Positions 524 to 60,997 of a stretch of DNA of 64,000 nucleotides are shown one piece after another. Position numbers and translations under genes: made by a program. A model generated the notes under the pieces. That model worked only from the letters and a program-made list of their open reading frames with translations, ran no database searches and had not been told where the DNA came from. This stretch comes from an uncultured candidate division Zixibacteria bacterium. Its GTDB lineage: Bacteria; Zixibacteria; MSB-5A5; GN15; FEB-12. Location of the stretch: NCBI GenBank assembly GCA_963735035.1, contig CAVTJJ010000005.1, positions 32,001 through 96,000 on the forward strand. The letters are read 5' to 3'. Numbering within the stretch: the first letter of the stretch is position 1; the number at the start of each line of letters is the position of its first letter.

Positions 524-910
524 GGTGTCGGGTCATCCGGTACCCCACAGCTTGCTGTGGGTTCGTCGGTTTCGACCTATGCAAGATTGGGGATAATCCC
601 GTTTCGCGTCGGGTCACATCCCTCCCTCGCCTTCGGCGAGTTTGGGACAAGACCCCCGATCTTGTCGGGGGCAGGCTCTGACGCAACAAACGTTCGAGAT
701 CGCCACGGCCCCGATAAGATCGGGGCCTCGCGATGACGGATTCGAGGGTTTTGTACTCCTCCAAAACTGTTGCCAAGCGGCAAACAGACGCGTAGTTTCC
801 ATAAGAAGTAAAATGCACTCGCCGGCAGATGTAGGCATCTGCCGGGCACGGGATACTCAATGGCAGATGATGCCCCGCAGTCAACTCGGGGGCAGGCATC
901 TGCCGGGCAC
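524..910. repeat. Composite cluster of REP-like palindromes (several families)
   Basis: cccacagcttgctgtggg, cccccgatcttgtcggggg, gagatcgccacgg...cctcgcgatgac and ggcagatgtaggcatctgcc; all recur elsewhere in the window. Confidence 0.85.
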
Positions 911-21734: not shown

Positions 21735-21905
21735 GTCATCGCGAGGCTCCGACTTGTTTGGGGCCGCGGCGAACTCGACTTCGTGGGCGGCACACGTCCC
21801 GTGTGCCCCTGAGGGGCAGACCAGGAGGTCTGCCGCCCACTTCACTTTGAGATTTCCGCGCTACACTGACCCGCCTGACGGCGTGCCATCTCCACTCGCT
21901 ATGAC
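21735..21905. repeat. Composite REP-like element (GTCA-type inverted pair enclosing a GTGG-type doublet)
   Basis: Same architecture as 26146-26317. Confidence 0.85.
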
Positions 21906-22725: not shown

Positions 22726-23050
22726 GTCATTCCCGGCTTGACCGGGAATCCAAAGGTTGTCGCGAAGGACTACGTCCGTTGCGTCAGAGCCTGCCCCCGA
22801 CCAGATCGGGGGTCTTGCGCCGCCAAAGGCGGCGTGTGACCTGACGCGTGCAGATCGCAGCGAACCAAAATACGTCCCGAGTGACGCGACGTATTCTGCG
22901 GCCACGAGTGGTCATGGATGCCCGACGGAATCGGGCATGACGGCGAAGGGGCTACCCGGCATGTTGTCTCAGAGAACCGGCAGATGTGGACATCTGCCGG
23001 GCACTTTGTACGCAGGCGAAATCTAATCCCACCCGAAGGGTGGGGCACCC
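22726..23050. repeat. REP-like cluster
   Basis: gtcattcccggcttgaccgggaatcc, gcgtcag...ctgacgc, ggcagatgtggacatctgcc, cccacccgaagggtgggg. Confidence 0.85.
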
Positions 23051-26145: not shown

Positions 26146-26317
26146 GTCATCGCGAGGCCCCGACTCGGTCGGGGCCGTGGCGATCTCAATTCCGTGGGCG
26201 GCACACGTCCTCGTGTGCCCCCGAGGGGCAGACCAGGAGGTCTGCCGCCCACTTCACTTTGAGATTGCCGCGCTACGATGACCCGCCTTACGTCGGGTCG
26301 TCTCCGCTCGCAATGAC
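26146..26317. repeat. Composite REP-like element
   Basis: gtcatcgcgagg..ccgtggcgatctc / gtgggcggcacac..gccgcccac / gagattgccgcg..ctcgcaatgac. Confidence 0.88.
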
Positions 26318-29101: not shown

Positions 29102-29345
29102 GGTAGGGCGGTTCCGCCTTCTCGGGTGGCCCACCATTTATGGTGGGGGATACTTAATAGTTGTCACCCTGAAGGCTTGTTGAAAGAGTCTATGTTGGCT
29201 CAATTCGTGGCCTTACGCTCGTGACGGCGAATTCCTAACTCGCTGCAACGCGTCAGGTCACACGCCGCCTTTGGCGTCGCAAGACCTGACGCAACAACAT
29301 TCGGGAAGTCCTTCAACTTGCCCTAAGTGTCGGGCCACCCATCTT
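29102..29345. repeat. REP-like palindromes
   Basis: gtagggcgg..., gtcaccctga..., gcgtcaggtcacacgccgcctttggcgtcgcaagacctgacgcaac. Confidence 0.7.
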
Positions 29346-33337: not shown

Positions 33338-33521
33338 TGTGTCAGGTCCTGTCACCGGCCCACCGGAGGTGGGGTGGGGATGTGACCTGACACTACCACT
33401 ACCACTCATTTGCATCGAGAGGTGTCAGTTCACACGCCCCCGATTAGAATCGGGGGCGCAGGAACTGACACAACATTGTCTACCCCTTCTGAAGGGGCAG
33501 ACCAGGAGGTCTGCTGCCCAC
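33338..33521. repeat. REP-like cluster
   Basis: gtgtcaggtc...gacctgacac, gtgtcagtt..cccccgattagaatcggggg..aactgacac, ggcagaccaggaggtctgc. Confidence 0.8.
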
Positions 33522-39015: not shown

Positions 39016-39184
39016 GTCATCACGAGGCCCCGACTTGATCGGGGCCGTGGCGATCTCAAGGCAGGGTGAGTCCCCGGTCCGCCTCGGCGGATCCACTTCT
39101 GCCGGCTCGTAGCGGTGCAGTCAAATTGAGATTGCCGCGCTACGATGCCCCGCCTGGCGGCGGGCCATCTCCGCTCGCAATGAC
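39016..39184. repeat. Composite REP-like element
   Basis: GTCA-type pair enclosing a degenerate GTGC-type hairpin that carries a tccgcctcggcgga insert. Confidence 0.85.
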
Positions 39185-39237: not shown

Positions 39238-40515
39238 TCACTCCGGCGCCGTCGTCAGCAAATCGTCCCAGCCGGTCGTGTAACGATTCGAATTGTAGTC
39301 CTGCTTCATCTTCCAGCTTCTTGTGCGGCCACTCGCTGACGGGCGAAGTGTGTCTGAGCCGTACTTGCCGTTGATCGCATCCACCGCTCGATACAGCCGC
39401 TCCTCCTTGTCGATATCCCTTCGGGCGAACAGGTCAATCTGCCGCGCCCGCGCCGGTGTAATCTGCCCCAGCTCAACCCCCGCCTTGATGTAGCGGTACC
39501 CCGGCTTGTACGCTTTCTCAACCGCGATCATGGCCAGCTTCACCAGGTCGCCGGTGGCGTTGGTCGACGGGTTCACCGAGACCGACACCGAGGCGCTGTA
39601 CTGGGGGTTTTGAGCAAAGACGTTGGTAGTAATGTACGCGGACAATTGCCCGGCCACCGACCGATCCTGGCGGAGTTTGGTCGCGGCAATGGTGACATGC
39701 ATGGAGATCGATTCCTTGAGGTCGGCCAGGTCGGTGACATACCGTCCGAACGAACGGGACGAAATGACATTCTTACGGGGCGCGAACATGGAGCGCAGTT
39801 CGATACATGATACCCCCCGAAGCTCCAGCACCGTCCGCAGTCCGGTGACACCGGCACGCTTGCGTATCACCGCATCGGGTAAACGCAGCAAATCAAGCGC
39901 GGTGTTGATGTTACGCTCGTACAGCCATCGGGCGATTTTCGGCCCGATCCCCCAAACGTCCTGAACCAGGGTAGCTTTGAGGATCGCATCCGGGTCGGGA
40001 CAGTCGGTCAGGTCGAAAACGTGGCCGGTGTCTTCGTGCGATTTCCCATATTCGGCAGCGATCTTGGCCAGGGTCTTGGTCGAGCCGATTCCGACCGTGA
40101 CCGGAATGCCCACGCGTTGCAGGACTTCCTTGCGGATCAGGCGACCGGTCTCGGCGCCGTCGCCTTCGTAGAATCCGACAAAAGCTTCATCGATAGAGTA
40201 GAGATCGACTTTCGGCAGGTATTCGCGCAACACCTCCATGACGCGACCGGACATGTCGGCGTACAGGGTATAATTCGAGGAGAACACCTTGACGTCATTT
40301 TTGATGATCAGGTCCTTGACCTTGAAGTACGGTATGCCCATCCCGATCCCGAGAGCTTTGACTTCCTTGGAGCGTGCGACTATACAGCCGTCGTTGTTGG
40401 AGAGCACCACGGCGGGACGATTTTTCAACTGGGGTTGAAAAACCCGTTCGCAGGAGACATAGAAGGTGTCGCAATCGATGAGGCCGACGCGACTATCGGG
40501 TTTTCTTGATGACAT
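39238..40515 (-). CDS. umuC: Y-family DNA polymerase V subunit UmuC
   Basis: LIDCDTFYVSCERVF, VVLSNNDGC, SSNYTLY, YSIDEAF, YTT.WDDL. Confidence 0.95.
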   Translation of the reverse strand: MSSRKPDSRVGLIDCDTFYVSCERVFQPQLKNRPAVVLSNNDGCIVARSKEVKALGIGMGIPYFKVKDLIIKNDVKVFSSNYTLYADMSGRVMEVLREYLPKVDLYSIDEAFVGFYEGDGAETGRLIRKEVLQRVGIPVTVGIGSTKTLAKIAAEYGKSHEDTGHVFDLTDCPDPDAILKATLVQDVWGIGPKIARWLYERNINTALDLLRLPDAVIRKRAGVTGLRTVLELRGVSCIELRSMFAPRKNVISSRSFGRYVTDLADLKESISMHVTIAATKLRQDRSVAGQLSAYITTNVFAQNPQYSASVSVSVNPSTNATGDLVKLAMIAVEKAYKPGYRYIKAGVELGQITPARARQIDLFARRDIDKEERLYRAVDAINGKYGSDTLRPSASGRTRSWKMKQDYNSNRYTTGWDDLLTTAPE

Positions 40516-40894
40516 AGGTGACAACGCCCCAAATTACCGCGTCGGTAAGGTCGGCCAGAGGGATCGGCGCGTAGTCGGGGTTGTCGGCGTGCAGGGCCGC
40601 GACGTTCTTGATGATGCGGAGACGTTTGACGGTGAAATCGCCGTTGACGCAGGCGATGACAATGTCCCCGGTCTTGGGCTTGAAGGCACGATCAACAACC
40701 AAAAGATCACCGTCGAAAATCCCGGCGCCAATCATGGAGTCACCTTTCGCGCGGATGAAAAATGTCGCAGACGGGTGCGAGATGAGATGCGTGTTCAGGT
40801 CGAGCGGTCTTTCGGCGTAGTCCGACGCGGGTGAGGGAAAACCGGCCGGCACCGACGATTCGATAAGGACCGAATGTTTCTTTGTGGTCGCCAT
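40493..40894 (-). CDS. umuD: UmuD (S24 autopeptidase)
   Basis: VPAG/FPSPA cleavage site, GDSM Ser and TVKRL Lys. Confidence 0.95.
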   Translation of the reverse strand: MATTKKHSVLIESSVPAGFPSPASDYAERPLDLNTHLISHPSATFFIRAKGDSMIGAGIFDGDLLVVDRAFKPKTGDIVIACVNGDFTVKRLRIIKNVAALHADNPDYAPIPLADLTDAVIWGVVTYVIKKTR

Positions 40895-40978
40895 ACCGGC
40901 AAGGTACGGCGGGCCGCCGCCGGGGGAATCACTTGTGTGTCACATTAACGAGGGTATGTTGACGACGTTCACCCAGAC

Positions 40979-41171
40979 GTCATTGCGAGCGGAGCCGACC
41001 CGCCGTAAGGCGGGTCAGCGTAGCGTGGCAATCTCAAAGTAAAGTGGGCGGCACACTGCCTGCCCCCGACTTGATCGGGGGTCCTCGTGTGCCCCAAATC
41101 AGGGGCAGACCAGGAGGTCTGCCGCCCACGAAATAGGCACGAGCCGGCAGATGTGGACATCTGCCGGGCAC
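40979..41171. repeat. REP-like cluster between SRAP and umuD
   Basis: GTCA-, GTGG- and GTGC-type hairpins; nested cccccgacttgatcggggg. Confidence 0.85.
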
Positions 41172-41206
41172 ACTGCAACATTCGCGATGACAGGTTCAGG
41201 AGTTTT

Positions 41207-41896
41207 TCAAAGGACCTGGGGGAGGGGCTCGATACAGGTCGGCGAGTCGTTGCGGGGCGAATTCACCAATTTCGACACGGGAAACGCCTCAAGCAGATCC
41301 GACGGGCACGACACGAGAAAATCACGCAACGCCTTCATGTCGGCGGTATCGCTGAGCCACACCTTTTCGGATTCGCTCGACAAAATGACCGGCATCCGGT
41401 TGTGGTAGGCCTTCATGAGATCGTTGGGCTCGGTCGTGAGGATCGTATAGGTCAGAATTTCTTCGTTCTTAGCGGGGTCTTTCCACGCCGACCACAAACC
41501 GGCAAACGAGAAGATACCTTGATTACGGGTCCTGACAAAAATTGGCTGTTTGCCCTGCCCGCCTCTGGCCGGCGTCCACTCGAAAAACCCGGTGGCGGGA
41601 ATGAGACAACGCTTGGACTTGAAAGCATCCCGGAAACTGGGCTTATCGGGCGCAGTCTCTGAGCGGGCATTGATCAACGACGCGCCTATCGATGGGTCCT
41701 TCGCCCAGTGGGGGATGAGCCCCCAGCGCATGCCACGCAGCTTTATTCCGGTGTCTCTAGTTATGACAGGCGCCATCTGGGAGGGGGCGATGTTGTAGCG
41801 GGGTGTCGGGTGAAACGACGACGAGGGGTCGTCGATGAACCCAAAGCGAACTTTGAGCGCCTCGTGTTCCTGGGCCAGGGCATACCGTCCACACAT
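41207..41896 (-). CDS. SOS response-associated peptidase (SRAP/YedK, abasic-site protecting)
   Basis: MCGRY N-terminus, RYNIAPSQ, WGLIP.W, INARSET, GFFEW, HNRMPVIL. Confidence 0.95.
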   Translation of the reverse strand: MCGRYALAQEHEALKVRFGFIDDPSSSFHPTPRYNIAPSQMAPVITRDTGIKLRGMRWGLIPHWAKDPSIGASLINARSETAPDKPSFRDAFKSKRCLIPATGFFEWTPARGGQGKQPIFVRTRNQGIFSFAGLWSAWKDPAKNEEILTYTILTTEPNDLMKAYHNRMPVILSSESEKVWLSDTADMKALRDFLVSCPSDLLEAFPVSKLVNSPRNDSPTCIEPLPQVL

Positions 41897-42075
41897 ACGA
41901 ATATAATACGGCCGACCAGGTTGCCGTGGCAATCTCATTTTGGGGGTGTTAGTGCGGTTACAATTTGGTAAAGGAGTAGGGACAGAAAAGGTTTGTCGGG
42001 CGTCTACCAAGTTCGTACCGTAGATACGCAACATTGTACGTAGCGAGTCACTCAAAATCAGGGTAGGAGATCGTC

Positions 42076-42837
42076 GTGAAACCGAATGATTCTGACAAGA
42101 TCTACAGTGATGGCAGATTTTTCGACCTCGAAAGCGGGGCATTGGCAAATGACATCCCGTTCTACTTGAAACAGGCAGCCATATCTGGCGGTCCGGTACT
42201 GGAACTCGGTTGTGGGACCGGCCGCGTTACCATACCAATGGCCGAGGCCGGCTTTGAAATGACAGGACTTGACATATCAGCTCCAGTGCTCAAACAAGCG
42301 CGTATCAAAGCTGCGGCGAAAAACCTGGACATTCGATGGATCGAAAGCGATTGCAGGGATTTCAATCTGGGCACCAGGTTCGGAACGATCATCTTTCCTT
42401 TCAATGGGATTGCTCATATACACGACCGCGAAAGCCACGAGGCGCTGTTTGAGCGGGTGCGGGCGCATCTGAAAGACACCGGTCACTTCATCATAGACTG
42501 GTTCAATCCGTCGTTGGAGATCCTTCTGAGAGGAAATGAGCAGAGGCATTCTTGCTTTGAATACGATGATCCTGACGGACATGGTAAAGTCATTGTCACT
42601 GAGGACAATTTCTACGATCGATCGACGCAGATTAACCATATCAAGTGGTACTACAAGATCGGCAACTTGCCGGAGGAAATCCGCGAACTCAACATGCGCA
42701 TTGTCTATCCTCAGGAGCTCGATGCCCTGTTTCATTACAATGGTTTTGAGATTGTTAGTAAGTACGGCGATCATCAGGAGAGCCCTTTCGAATCGAGTTC
42801 GCGGCATCAGTTGATTGTGAGCCGCCTAAGGCAATAG
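42076..42837 (+). CDS. Class I SAM-dependent methyltransferase
   Basis: VLELGCGTGR, GLDIS; GTG start with SD aggag. Confidence 0.92.
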   Translation: MKPNDSDKIYSDGRFFDLESGALANDIPFYLKQAAISGGPVLELGCGTGRVTIPMAEAGFEMTGLDISAPVLKQARIKAAAKNLDIRWIESDCRDFNLGTRFGTIIFPFNGIAHIHDRESHEALFERVRAHLKDTGHFIIDWFNPSLEILLRGNEQRHSCFEYDDPDGHGKVIVTEDNFYDRSTQINHIKWYYKIGNLPEEIRELNMRIVYPQELDALFHYNGFEIVSKYGDHQESPFESSSRHQLIVSRLRQ

Positions 42838-51779: not shown

Positions 51780-51924
51780 GGGGGCATCCAAGAAGCCGTG
51801 CCCGGTCCGCCGCGGCGGACCCACATCTGCCGACGAGTACATGATCCGCAACCAACTTGATCGGCAACTGACTTAAGCGGCAGCTAACTTGATCGGCAAG
51901 GTTCCACCCCTGCCGTTTTATGTT

Positions 51925-52114
51925 CCGGCAGGCGCGGAGGCCTGCCGATTACGAGGCGTTCTGTTCCAGCAGGCGCGGAGGCCTGCCGATCACGAGGGGA
52001 TCTGTTCCGGCCGGCGCAGAGGCCTGCCGATTAAAGGGGGATTCGTCCCGGCAGGCGCGGAGGCCTGCCGATTAAACGAGGTTTTCTTTTCGGCAGGCGC
52101 AGAGGCCTGCCGAT
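51925..52114. repeat. Five-copy tandem array of a 25-bp palindrome, period 41-42 bp
   Basis: CCGGCAGGCGC(G/A)GAGGCCTGCCGAT at 51925, 51966, 52007, 52048 and 52090. Confidence 0.92.
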
Positions 52115-52145
52115 CACTAGCGGCGAGCGCATTCAGAAATCTATC

Positions 52146-55394: not shown

Positions 55395-55838
55395 CGTTAG
55401 GTGATGGCAGGCTCACGAGCCTGTAGTGATGATCCAATTATCACTAGGTAGTCCCCACAGCACAAGAAATATCTGCATTAATGCGAGACAGGCTATTCCA
55501 GGTCAAATCACTGCCAGGCAGTAGCTACAGGTGCCGTATCCGATGGCATTTGGTCACAGGACACATGCTTGCAGAGGTCGCGCTCGTCGGCTGCTTCCGG
55601 TTATACTTATCATGATCTTCTTTGATGGTCACGCTCTGCCGGCGTCATGAAATACGGCCGGGTGTTATCAGACCTCGCGCGGGCTGTTTGACGGTTATGT
55701 GCCGCCAGGGCTCCGGCGAGAAACCCCGGTATCATGCCGACTATGATCCAAGCTACTACTGACATTAGTTGTCCCTTCAGAGTGTGAGCAAGAATGCGTG
55801 GGCGGCAGACGTCCTCGTCTGCCCCAAGTAAGCGAAAT

Positions 55839-56072: not shown

Positions 56073-56303
56073 ACTACATCTCCTTTGGTTCCCATGTCAC
56101 GGTTCGGGTATCGCCTGGTCACGATGCCGGAATACGCCGTGGTGACGCCTTATTGCGTCATTGTTACCTGATCAAGGGTTAGACAAGGATTGTTTTGCCG
56201 GGACAAAACTTGAGAAACGATCAATGGGTAGACACTAGGTCTATGTATAGTATACGTTTGAAACGCTCTAACGCCTACGTTTATTTCTGTCGGCGCCTTG
56301 TCT

Positions 56304-56404
56304 CGGCAGGCGCAGAGGCCTGCCGATTACAGGTGCAAAAACTGATCGGCAGGGTTCCATCCCTGCCGTTCTTCATTCGGTAGGCGCAGAGGCCTGCCGA
56401 TCAC
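56304..56404. repeat. REP-like hairpins (GATC-type family)
   Basis: cggcaggcgcagaggcctgccgat and gatcggcagggttccatccctgccg. Confidence 0.85.
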
Positions 56405-56488
56405 GACCGCATGACGTCTTGTAGGTCGTGACCATTGTGCCTGCTCGCTGAGGCGAGGTCCCGACATTCCGCTTCAAACGCTGCTGCC

Positions 56489-56522
56489 AAAAAAAGGAGA
56501 CCGGTCACAGACCGATCTCCTT
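56489..56522 (-). terminator. Terminator after RRM gene 3
   Basis: A run plus ggagaccggtc-aca-gaccgatctcc. Confidence 0.7.
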
Positions 56523-56570
56523 CAAGATCAATGCCACAGCATTGCGGCCGTGGATTCGGTCAGGTCGAGA

Positions 56571-56861
56571 CTAGTAAACCTTGCGGTAGTTGTTATTACC
56601 ACCACGGTTGCCACTGTCTTCGCGCGGCTTCGCCTGATTGACATTCCAGGCGCGGCCGTTCTGGTCGTGACCGTTGAGTCCGCTGATGGCCGCATTGGCC
56701 TCGGCCGCTGTCGGCATTTCGACAAAGGCAAAACCTTTGGGCTGGCCGCTGTCACGGTCGGTGATGACCTTGACGGTTGAAACTTCGCCGTAGCCTGAGA
56801 AGGCCACGCGCAATTGATCTTCTGTCGTATCATACGACATGTTGCCGATGTAGATATTCAT
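56571..56861 (-). CDS. RRM RNA-binding protein (Rbp-like)
   Basis: MNIYIGNM, KGFAFVEM. Confidence 0.95.
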   Translation of the reverse strand: MNIYIGNMSYDTTEDQLRVAFSGYGEVSTVKVITDRDSGQPKGFAFVEMPTAAEANAAISGLNGHDQNGRAWNVNQAKPREDSGNRGGNNNYRKVY

Positions 56862-57035
56862 TCTACACTCCATTCATATTACTCTTGACGAGGCCTGGCT
56901 GCATAGAGAAGCCGGTCATCTCAAGAGCGTTGATAAAGCGCATGATTGCGCGATCAATTCGAGATAGAACAATTTGGCGGAGAGTTGTAGATTAGGACAA
57001 GACTTCGAGAAAAGGTCAGACTCAAATCAATGTTT

Positions 57036-57064
57036 ACTATACAGTATAACGGCATTTATGTCGA
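57036..57064 (-). promoter_or_regulatory. sigma70-type promoter of RRM gene 3
   Basis: TCGACA-N17-TATAGT on the minus strand. Confidence 0.6.
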
Positions 57065-57198
57065 AAAGCTACAGTTTAATTTGACTTTATTTGTCCATTT
57101 TTCGCACAAATCTTTCTGTGCGATACTGATTGAGAGGGTCAAAACGTGGAGGAAATAGCCTGTAAGCTCATGCCCGGTATGGAGTGTGCCCCTTCCGT

Positions 57199-57727
57199 GA
57201 TCGGCAGGGTTCCATCCCTGCCGTTCTTCTTCCGGCAGGCGCAGAGGCCTGCCGATCACAGGGGGTAATCACCGTGCCCGGCAGATGCCCACATCTGCCG
57301 ACGAAATACTGATCGGCAGGGTTCCATCCCTGCCGTTCTTCTTCCGGCAGGCACAGAGGCCTGCCGATCACAGGGGGTAATCACCGTGCCCGGCAGATGT
57401 CCACGTCTGCCGACGAGAACGCGACACCTTGTTCGTAGTTCCCAGCACCCCACTCCGTCATTCCCGGCTTGGCCGGGAATCCATGGGCCGTAGCGATCGA
57501 TATTGCACCCGCTTCTACGTGAGCACCGAATTAACGCTGGGACAAGCGAGTTCTGCGCTCTCCCGTGTGACTGATCGCCTTATGCGGACGCGAGTGGTCA
57601 TGGGTGCCCGACGTCTCGGGCATGACGGGACTAGTGTCCCGTTTCGCGGTTGGTGGCCCCAATCTATGATCGGCAGGGTTCCATCCCTGCCGTTCTTCTT
57701 CCGGGAGGCACAGAGGCCTGCCGATCA
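57199..57727. repeat. REP-like cluster including a 112-bp tandem duplication
   Basis: 57199-57304 is nearly identical to 57311-57416. Confidence 0.9.
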
Positions 57728-57808
57728 CGGGCGCACGAAGTGATTGACACGCTCCCATCACTGCATTATCAAACCGGCGTCCGAACAACAAATACATGAG
57801 GCAACAAC

Positions 57809-58213
57809 ATGACTAACCACTTCGACGACCCGGTAAAACAGGAAATCTGGCAAACCCTGCGCGCGCTCAACGACGCCTGGACCAAGGGTCATCCCGACGA
57901 TCTGAACAATTACTTCCACAAAGACATGGTCGCGATTACGCCGATGGATCGCGGTCGTCTCGACGGTCGCGACGCTTGTGTGACGTCGTGGACCAACTTC
58001 GCGAAGGCGGCCACGATTCACTATTGGAAGGAGCTCGAACCGAAGATTCAGGTGTATGGCCAGACGGCAGTTGTTACGTACTATTATGATATGTCGTTCG
58101 ACATGGGCGGGAAGACGATCACACTTCAGGGCCGCGACATGTTTACGTTCGTGAAGGAAGACGGCCGCTGGCGGGCGGTCGCCGACCAGTTCTCGCGCCA
58201 ACCCACCGAATAA
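57809..58213 (+). CDS. NTF2-like (DUF4440/SnoaL) protein
   Basis: NDAW..G, YG.TAVVTY, G.D.F.FVKEDGRW; SD gagg. Confidence 0.87.
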   Translation: MTNHFDDPVKQEIWQTLRALNDAWTKGHPDDLNNYFHKDMVAITPMDRGRLDGRDACVTSWTNFAKAATIHYWKELEPKIQVYGQTAVVTYYYDMSFDMGGKTITLQGRDMFTFVKEDGRWRAVADQFSRQPTE

Positions 58214-58223
58214 CGAGCGTTTC

Positions 58224-58604
58224 TGGTGCCCCACCGCTTGCGGTGGGTTTATACGTGGGCGGCAGAAACCGCCCCCGACTTGATCGGGGGTCCTCGTCTG
58301 CCCCAAATATCTTCAAGGGTTGTGATATTACGGAGCGCACGCTCCGTCACCCCGGTGAAAACCGGGGCCCAGTTGTGTTGGAAAGAGCGCAGACGCCAAT
58401 GTACAAGCATTCGTAGCGATGGGAGGAGTCAGGCATTACGCCGCTGCCTTAGCGATCACAACTGGGTCCCGACTTTCGTCGGGATGACGGGACTAGTGTC
58501 CCGTTTCTTAGCTGATGGCCCCATTCTGTGATCGGCAGGGTTCCATCCCTGCCGATTACAGGGGGTAATCACCGTGCCTGGCAGATGCCCACATCTGCCG
58601 ACGA
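58224..58604. repeat. REP-like cluster
   Basis: Several repeat families; 58484-58554 repeats 57622-57692. Confidence 0.88.
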
Positions 58605-60456: not shown

Positions 60457-60997
60457 CGAGTCGGCAGATGTGGACATCTGCCGGGCACGGTTCAAGAGTG
60501 TCCGGACCCACCGCAAGCGGTGGGGCACCCGGACACGTATAGTTCAAGAAGACGGACGCAAGTCCGTCACCCCTGCGGCGGCAGGGGCCCAGTCAAGGTG
60601 GCTAATAACCCAATCCAAATGTCAGCATAGACCTTCCAAAGAGAGGTCTTCAAAATAGTTGACTTAGGTGCTCTGCGGTCTTGTCTGGGTTCCTGCCTTC
60701 GCAGGAATGACGAAGAGGGGGGCAGGAATGACAAAGTAAACGCGTCAGGTCACACGATCCGCCCGCCTTCGGCGGCCAGATCGCAGGACCTGACGCAACA
60801 GCTATAGGGGGCTTCGTACGAGTCGGCAGATGTGGGCATCTGCCGGGCACGGTTATTTCACCCACAATCTCACAACCCTTGGGTGCCCCGCCTGAAGCGG
60901 GGCAAGACAGAATTGAGTTAGCGGGGCAAGATAGGTTTGGGGGACTATTCGCGTCAGGTCACACGTCCCGCAAGGCGGGCCGCAGTACCTGACGCAA
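60457..60997. repeat. Large REP-like cluster between tRNA-Thr and pfk
   Basis: Two GTGC-type, two gcgtcaggtc..cctgacgc, GTCA-type and GGTG-type hairpins. Confidence 0.88.

Follow-up and report, generated by a model that had tools for sequence, protein, structure and literature searches.

Introduction

How the short hairpin repeats of bacteria (REPs, SRMs and SDRs) reach new places is an open question. SDR1-8 of the Nostocaceae, attributed to the work of Elhai et al. in 2008, are reportedly about 20-27 nt in size and are said to nest in their own copies. SDR5 was found inserted precisely into HIP1 (PMC4390886, PMC5861425, PMC2884548, PMC3116915), and according to one of these sources they are restricted to the Nostocaceae (PMC5861425). 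In the SRM/Ssn system, SsnA cuts single-stranded DNA only, upstream of a palindrome; the C right after the palindrome has the strongest effect on SsnA binding, the three bases before the palindrome matter for cutting, and the cut, as counted here from the oligonucleotide, lies at a distance of 8 nt from it (Chenal et al., 2025; PMC11893778). Mobility, filled and empty sites and nesting are absent from the account given in the available part of this source (PMC11893778). As for REPs, their presence inside small palindromes and in frame within genes has been described (Di Nocera, 2013).

The present analysis concerns a 24-nt module, i.e., a 6-nt leader followed by a hairpin, in a 64-kb stretch of DNA (hereafter the window) taken from contig C5, the genome as a whole measuring 3.6 Mb. 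As judged by descriptions of SDRs, the module appears to work like these cyanobacterial elements: it falls within their reported length range and is dispersed in about 65 copies, it inserts precisely into other repeats without duplication, some 5' junctions being imprecise, it forms nested and tandem self-copies, and, as for SDRs, no enzyme is known for it. It differs from SDRs in that it is not confined to Nostocaceae but occurs in many other phyla (80 titles listed), and in that its hairpin can be traced to repeats associated with Ssn, with the target completing the stem. Where an earlier note on this DNA had not recognised a described class, the SDRs constitute a precedent.

With SRM/NTS repeats, the module shares the same 8-bp stem geometry and the conserved C after the hairpin, here supplied by the target (position +3, in 36 of 56 contexts), but instead of the conserved 5' tag directly before the stem it has a different 6-nt leader (PMC11893778). 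Its hosts in this genome are RAYT-associated REPs, in which the module is a passenger and not a REP itself; it lacks the REP tetranucleotide guide at the hairpin foot, as well as the doublet, and, unlike its hosts, does not flank a RAYT gene as inverted copies (PMC3733652, PMC3116915, PMC8266576, PMC6006769). The terminal inverted repeats and target-site duplication of MITEs are both absent from the module. As with the Rickettsia palindromic elements (RPE), insertion occurs in frame into conserved proteins, but RPEs are longer and lineage-bound whereas the module adds 8 residues in many lineages (PMC3733652). The literature searched, with Elhai 2008 and two supplement files of PMC11893778 outside its scope, held no description of the module and no match to its 14-letter core. 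The module is among the smallest insertion elements seen, and the present analysis contributes a base pair formed between element and target, a rule of target choice, exact alleles of glmS that lack the insert, and tests of partner enzymes.

The inserted unit and its copies in the window

The palindrome on which the earlier note was built occurs 8 times in the window, where shuffled sequences would lead one to expect 0.11 matches, and the coordinates quoted for it all hold. The unit of 17-24 bp proposed at the time, however, merges two things, since leaderless palindromes are the tips of other repeat families. The true inserted unit is the 24-nt module and not the bare palindrome, an identification that can be held with high confidence. 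As had been proposed, the filled type A host REP at 41044..41094 (plus strand), belonging to the first family recognised in this DNA, equals its empty counterpart at 26194..26220 (plus strand) with a clean 24-nt insertion at 41057..41080 (plus strand). This copy begins with T where the usual first base is A, and together with its target bases it folds into a 7-bp stem (z -3.7). A second empty type A host, the loop of which is shorter by one base, lies at 21783..21808 (plus strand). For the type A variant at 58255..58303 and its empty counterpart at 55798..55824 (both plus strand), the filled-to-empty relation stands but the insertion is not clean, with a net difference of +22, two host bases lost and a diverged leader in the module (58266..58289, plus strand).

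The claim that the palindrome sits inside unrelated families divides in the same manner. On the one hand, the leader-bearing module is again present at 654..677 (minus strand), in a type B host, and at 22788..22811 (plus strand), where it forms a clean 24-nt insertion in a type B host, within the arm nearer the tag; on the other hand, the palindromes at 709..725 (minus strand), 26158..26174 and 39028..39044 (both plus strand) and 33438..33455 (strand unassigned) are leaderless tips and not modules. A fifth copy, decayed and absent from the earlier note, occupies a type C host at 875..898 (minus strand). Empty hosts on the minus strand comprise the 5' parts of two type B hosts (29280..29295 and 60784..60799) and a type C host adjoining the 41044 site (41146..41171). 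When the orthologous site (40300-41900) was searched in 20 relatives, matches were to repeats or short gene stretches only, and none of the contigs listed bridged a filled site.

Leaderless palindromes and hairpin tips

Genome-wide, 93 palindromes fall by pattern class into 35 leader-bearing modules, 35 native stems, 16 tips and 7 others, and the palindrome is commoner inside repeats than elsewhere, in keeping with the earlier note. The native stems belong to a repeat family resembling that flanking the GIY-YIG gene L219, the 16 leaderless palindromes are tips of three other repeat families, and insert behaviour is restricted to the leader-bearing form. The palindrome at 26158 is the tip of a repeat family flanking another GIY-YIG gene, L204, and those at 39028 and 709 belong to the same family, while that at 33438 is the central hairpin of another family, with a 6-nt loop. 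Among the 60 of 83 central-segment variants listed for the 26158 family, the tip is exchanged for other hairpins of 11-42 nt and an empty form is absent. Tip swapping looks like a second process, separate from the module. Across the genome, several repeat families that are unrelated to one another draw their central tips from a shared set of interchangeable mini-hairpins of 11-42 nt.

Host REPs and copy history in this genome

A fuzzy search returned 66 matches in the genome, of which one was dropped as a leaderless tip. All 65 modules kept lie in REP hosts, 60 of which a pattern assigns to seven types while the other 5 were taken by eye as variants of these, and empty hosts, from 7 to 173 per type, exist beside the filled ones. 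The orientation of the module is always that of the host tag. In this genome, genes for Y1 transposases are flanked by repeats of the three main host types, with the type B family flanking the RAYT gene L006 and the type C family the RAYT genes L001, which passes the RAYT cut-off, and L003. These filled and empty forms in seven host types, together with insertions in unique genes, bear out the earlier proposal of an ultra-small non-autonomous insert; insertion is not limited to the arms and loops of hairpins, for the module also lands in coding sequence.

As the host arms measure 10-13 nt, the association between host type and module variant was assessed by permutation in place of trees. The first base of the module tracks host family (p=0.0002), as does one stem variant (p=0.004), and a loop variant is independent of it (p=0.35). 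Among distal-arm sites of this genome with the same six target bases, 0/69 are filled. Given the host-linked variants and these empty distal-arm sites, most copies here are probably descendants of a few founder insertions multiplied with their hosts rather than independent insertions. That all filled copies go back to a single ancestral composite, an alternative raised at the outset, is unlikely because junctions are host-specific and paired arm variants are found both filled and empty; the seven host types and the insertions in genes of other genomes likewise tell against it. Type A hosts minus two bases have 7 upstream and 5 downstream bases in common with a type B variant, which itself takes a clean insertion, and the module would have passed from type B to type A by conversion between families. 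A 60-nt tandem array at C4:273318-273452, with one empty and two filled hosts, represents a filled repeat that was duplicated locally. The genes lying between module pairs, inspected in six regions of this genome, are ordinary.

Distribution across genomes and insertions in genes

Exact patterns detect the module in 2/61 relatives and in 8/251 genomes of the same phylum, with 33 copies here, 11 in a genome of the same genus and 1-2 in each of six others. An all-GTDB scan gave at least 120 loci of near-identical letters, and the 80 titles listed cover Alpha-, Beta- and Gammaproteobacteria, Dehalococcoidia, Desulfobacterales and Syntrophaceae, as well as Terracidiphilus, Chitinophagaceae, Rhodothermales and Binatia, i.e., about six phyla by our own grouping of the matches listed. 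Another 20 module loci come from viral contigs, and in the family sampled around the carrier G065 the module is present in 20/121 genomes. Elsewhere, the hosts comprise many unrelated repeat families, and many are not REPs. Five related viral contigs (L530, L532, L538, L539 and L548) have a module inserted at an identical position, apparently in frame, which suggests inheritance from a single event.

In glmS of G262 (NCBIfam glmS), the module is inserted in frame and corresponds to a 24-column gap in 8 orthologues, these being the loci aligned out of the 11 others returned; the flanking hexamer is exact in 4 of these 8, with neither duplication nor loss, and the other full-length glmS matches are shorter by 24 bases in 23/24 cases and by 21 in the remaining one. 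A strawberry-notch gene contains an exact in-frame 24-nt insertion, seen as the same gap against the 2 plasmid records aligned of 454 found. As read in the carrier genes themselves, in-frame copies are also present in pyrF and coaBC. In most of the proteins identified, it is the module's minus strand that is translated, and this would fit the stop codon that the plus strand presents in frame at this target. Not every insertion is clean, since that in an IS481 remnant amounts to a net +21. Module dimers at L041 and L128 and four head-to-tail units in G063 establish that the unit is 24 nt. In both G061 and G262 a single copy was detected, and the insertions in unique genes of other genomes are independent events. 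A 24-nt element thus keeps nearly the same letters across phyla and gives GlmS, PyrF, CoaBC and further proteins the same 8 extra residues. An amidohydrolase-like protein has one and the same in-frame insertion immediately after its predicted signal peptide in three genomes of one family (L575, L579 and L580).

Hairpin structure and target rule

Within the stem, changes are compensatory. Of 47 copies in this genome, 39 have C-G at pair 11/21 and 5 have G-C; at pair 13/19, the 39 viral contexts comprise 33 with A-T and 5 with G-C. Position 7 of the module pairs with target base +1, the target giving the last base of the stem: T is found with A in 10/10 contexts and C with G in 209/227, these contexts being partly non-independent and most searches having fixed position 7 as C. 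With the target bases added, the predicted stem extends from 6 to 7 pairs. Clustering of 168 contexts gave 64 groups, the 56 singletons of which formed the non-redundant set. Against backgrounds of 0.18-0.31, these 56 contexts have G at +1 in 50, T at +2 in 21 and C at +3 in 36 on the downstream side, and G at -1 in 34 and A at -2 in 38 on the upstream side, the +1 count being in part a product of the searches, most of which prescribed C as the pairing base. Over 64 weighted contexts, the first base of the module is A in 53, G in 6, T in 3 and C in 2.

A sister module (L181-L203), with the same leader and length and another hairpin, occurs at 23 viral loci; target base +1 is G in 20 of its 24 matches, and the upstream preference is absent. 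The leader of this sister module repeats a segment of its own loop, and there are hints that the leader arose by self-nesting. Two further pairings were considered. The leader as a guide pairing with the upstream target was rejected as a general rule, as the sister module has the same leader without the upstream preference. Pairing of the loop with the target was set aside as a weak idea; the six favoured bases complement a loop segment, but position +4, compared between this genome and others, contradicts the prediction.

Origin of the hairpin and partner-enzyme tests

The same hairpin with a different 5' tag is present at 119 viral loci, at one of which (L327) letter-identical inverted copies bracket a gene for a 99-aa GIY-YIG protein (Pfam PF01541). 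Loci related to the L327 protein have this parent hairpin type in 80/83 cases, though they are not independent because their proteins are 69-100% identical; whereas SRMs flank an Ssn gene, the leader-bearing module is near 0/83 of these GIY-YIG loci. As far as the sequence tells, the L327-type layout corresponds to that of the SRM/Ssn system (Chenal et al., 2025). The likeness of module and SRM rests on an alignment of stems by eye, in which the SsnA-binding C coincides with target base +3, the expected position of the cut is 3 nt upstream of the leader, and the leader differs at the bases, three in number, that SsnA needs for cutting.

Partner enzymes were compared in one family between 20 module-positive and 99 negative genomes, G324 and G333 being left out and kinship uncorrected. 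The mean number of PF01541 matches is 2.95 in the positives (n=20) and 2.15 in the negatives (n=99) (p=0.002), and four or more such matches are found in 7/20 positive against 4/99 negative genomes. Any GIY-YIG match beyond the first shows no enrichment (17/20 vs 75/99, p=0.56), and the difference in counts may be a mere reflection of repeat-rich kin. In a separate comparison, the module and the exact parent repeat do not co-occur (3/8 positive vs 63/243 negative genomes, p=0.44), and in another set of module-positive genomes the exact parent repeat is present in 1/5. The genome G065 carries 10-12 modules, yet its GIY-YIG frame is only UvrC-sized. No match to GIY-YIG, RAYT or DUF559 was obtained in 57 module loci, and DUF559 was not found in the present genome.

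Possible mechanisms of insertion

The module is best described as a 24-nt non-autonomous insertion element, the hairpin of which derives from SRM-type repeats flanking small GIY-YIG 'Ssn' nuclease genes. The explanation tentatively favoured here is a rare single-stranded insertion aided by an Ssn-like nuclease, followed by spread as a passenger of host REPs; it starts from the observed unit length, exact insertion, target preference, junction pairing and hairpin identity, to which the enzyme and every chemical step are putative additions. In a first and rare tier, a new insertion would take place on single-stranded DNA, with the 3' end of the module joined inside its own stem and the target giving both the last stem base (+1) and the +3 C required by Ssn proteins for binding. 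An Ssn-like nuclease, recognising the completed structure, would hold the donor or cut it a few nucleotides upstream of the leader, with the joining completed by the repair functions and ligase of the host, the outcome being a tight 3' junction, a looser 5' junction and no target duplication. In a second and common tier, partly observed, filled host REPs would multiply with their family and the module would reach related families via short shared flanks, as the host-linked variants and the 0/69 filled distal-arm sites indicate.

The Ssn-like route is supported by the hairpin type at 80/83 loci, the higher PF01541 counts in carriers and the five small GIY-YIG genes of this genome, four of which have inverted repeats of this class alongside; it is opposed by the absence of the module from all 83 loci, the absence of GIY-YIG matches from the 57 module loci, the lack of co-occurrence with the parent repeat, the case of G065, the differing cutting bases and the sister module, which shares the leader but not the upstream preference. 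GIY-YIG enzymes hydrolyse, and we know of no strand transfer by them. More broadly, there might exist a cross-phylum class of 24-nt mobile elements in which a 6-nt leader is set on exchangeable Ssn-target hairpins, recognition is completed by the target and a tiny GIY-YIG nuclease of single-stranded DNA aids integration. This extension is doubtful; if true, it would mean a transposition route without transposase, by which core enzymes repeatedly acquire the same insert of 8 residues. Should an Ssn-like nuclease integrate the module, these enzymes would gain a role in mobility and a very small single-stranded DNA insertion tool could be envisaged. Since the ends are exact, the target rule can be measured, one base pair covaries between element and target and candidate enzymes can be named, these matters are testable with oligonucleotides.

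Among the rival explanations, one dispenses with a dedicated enzyme altogether, invoking a template switch or gene conversion, while DNA is replicated or repaired, over 2-5 nt of shared flanks, with the hairpin as a splint and, between taxa, travel of the module inside REP-bearing DNA. The variable 5' junctions (net +21 to +24) agree with it, the two-base loss in type A is what conversion by a filled type B host is expected to give, and there are carriers in which no RAYT gene was found and carriers in which no small GIY-YIG gene was. Such a process is nonetheless unlikely in view of the exact 24-nt insertions in unique genes and in genomes with one detected copy (G061 and G262) and of the existence of a second module of the same leader and length; moreover, the near-identical letters across phyla and the paired stem changes suggest that a protein reads the module. 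A RAYT/HUH (Y1) transposase, acting by single-strand cleavage and strand transfer as in IS200/IS605-type elements, would account for the absence of target duplication, the fixed orientation, the tandem arrays and the Y1 genes flanked by the three main host types; the minus-strand attacking target base is also usually C, and strand transfer by TnpA-REP requires an attacking C (PMC8266576). It is quite improbable all the same, as the leader is without canonical REP guide, the 24-nt junctions mostly misfit a cut between C and T, RAYT presence is equal in carriers (15/20) and non-carriers (74/99, p=1.0), none was found in G063 (23 modules) or G305 (5 modules), and many hosts elsewhere are not REPs. 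An RNA route is said to have been suggested for SDRs; for the module, this would imply that a small hairpin RNA serves as template at a nick, either for target-primed reverse transcription or for repair, and the variable first base is such as non-templated addition would give. With no reverse transcriptase match in 5/5 carrier genomes, this genome included, and the related Ssn system acting on DNA only according to the available part of its description (PMC11893778), it appears very improbable. Next to these alternatives, the two-tier explanation with an Ssn-like nuclease is retained as the preferred reading.

Gene content around the repeats

Six Y1/RAYT genes are present in the genome, each with its own REP family; the family flanking the RAYT gene L002 has tandem or clustered copies at 51916-52122 and 56294-58564. 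Five small GIY-YIG genes are present as well, namely L204, L213, L216, L219 and one at C5:31487-31702, about 300 bases before the window; four of the five have inverted SRM-like repeats beside them, and L216 lies among longer repeats. Together, these genes make an unusually rich set for one genome. As named from translations, the genes flanking the 41044 site are SRAP-like (41207-42148) and umuD/umuC-like (39238-40894), i.e., a mutagenesis cassette.
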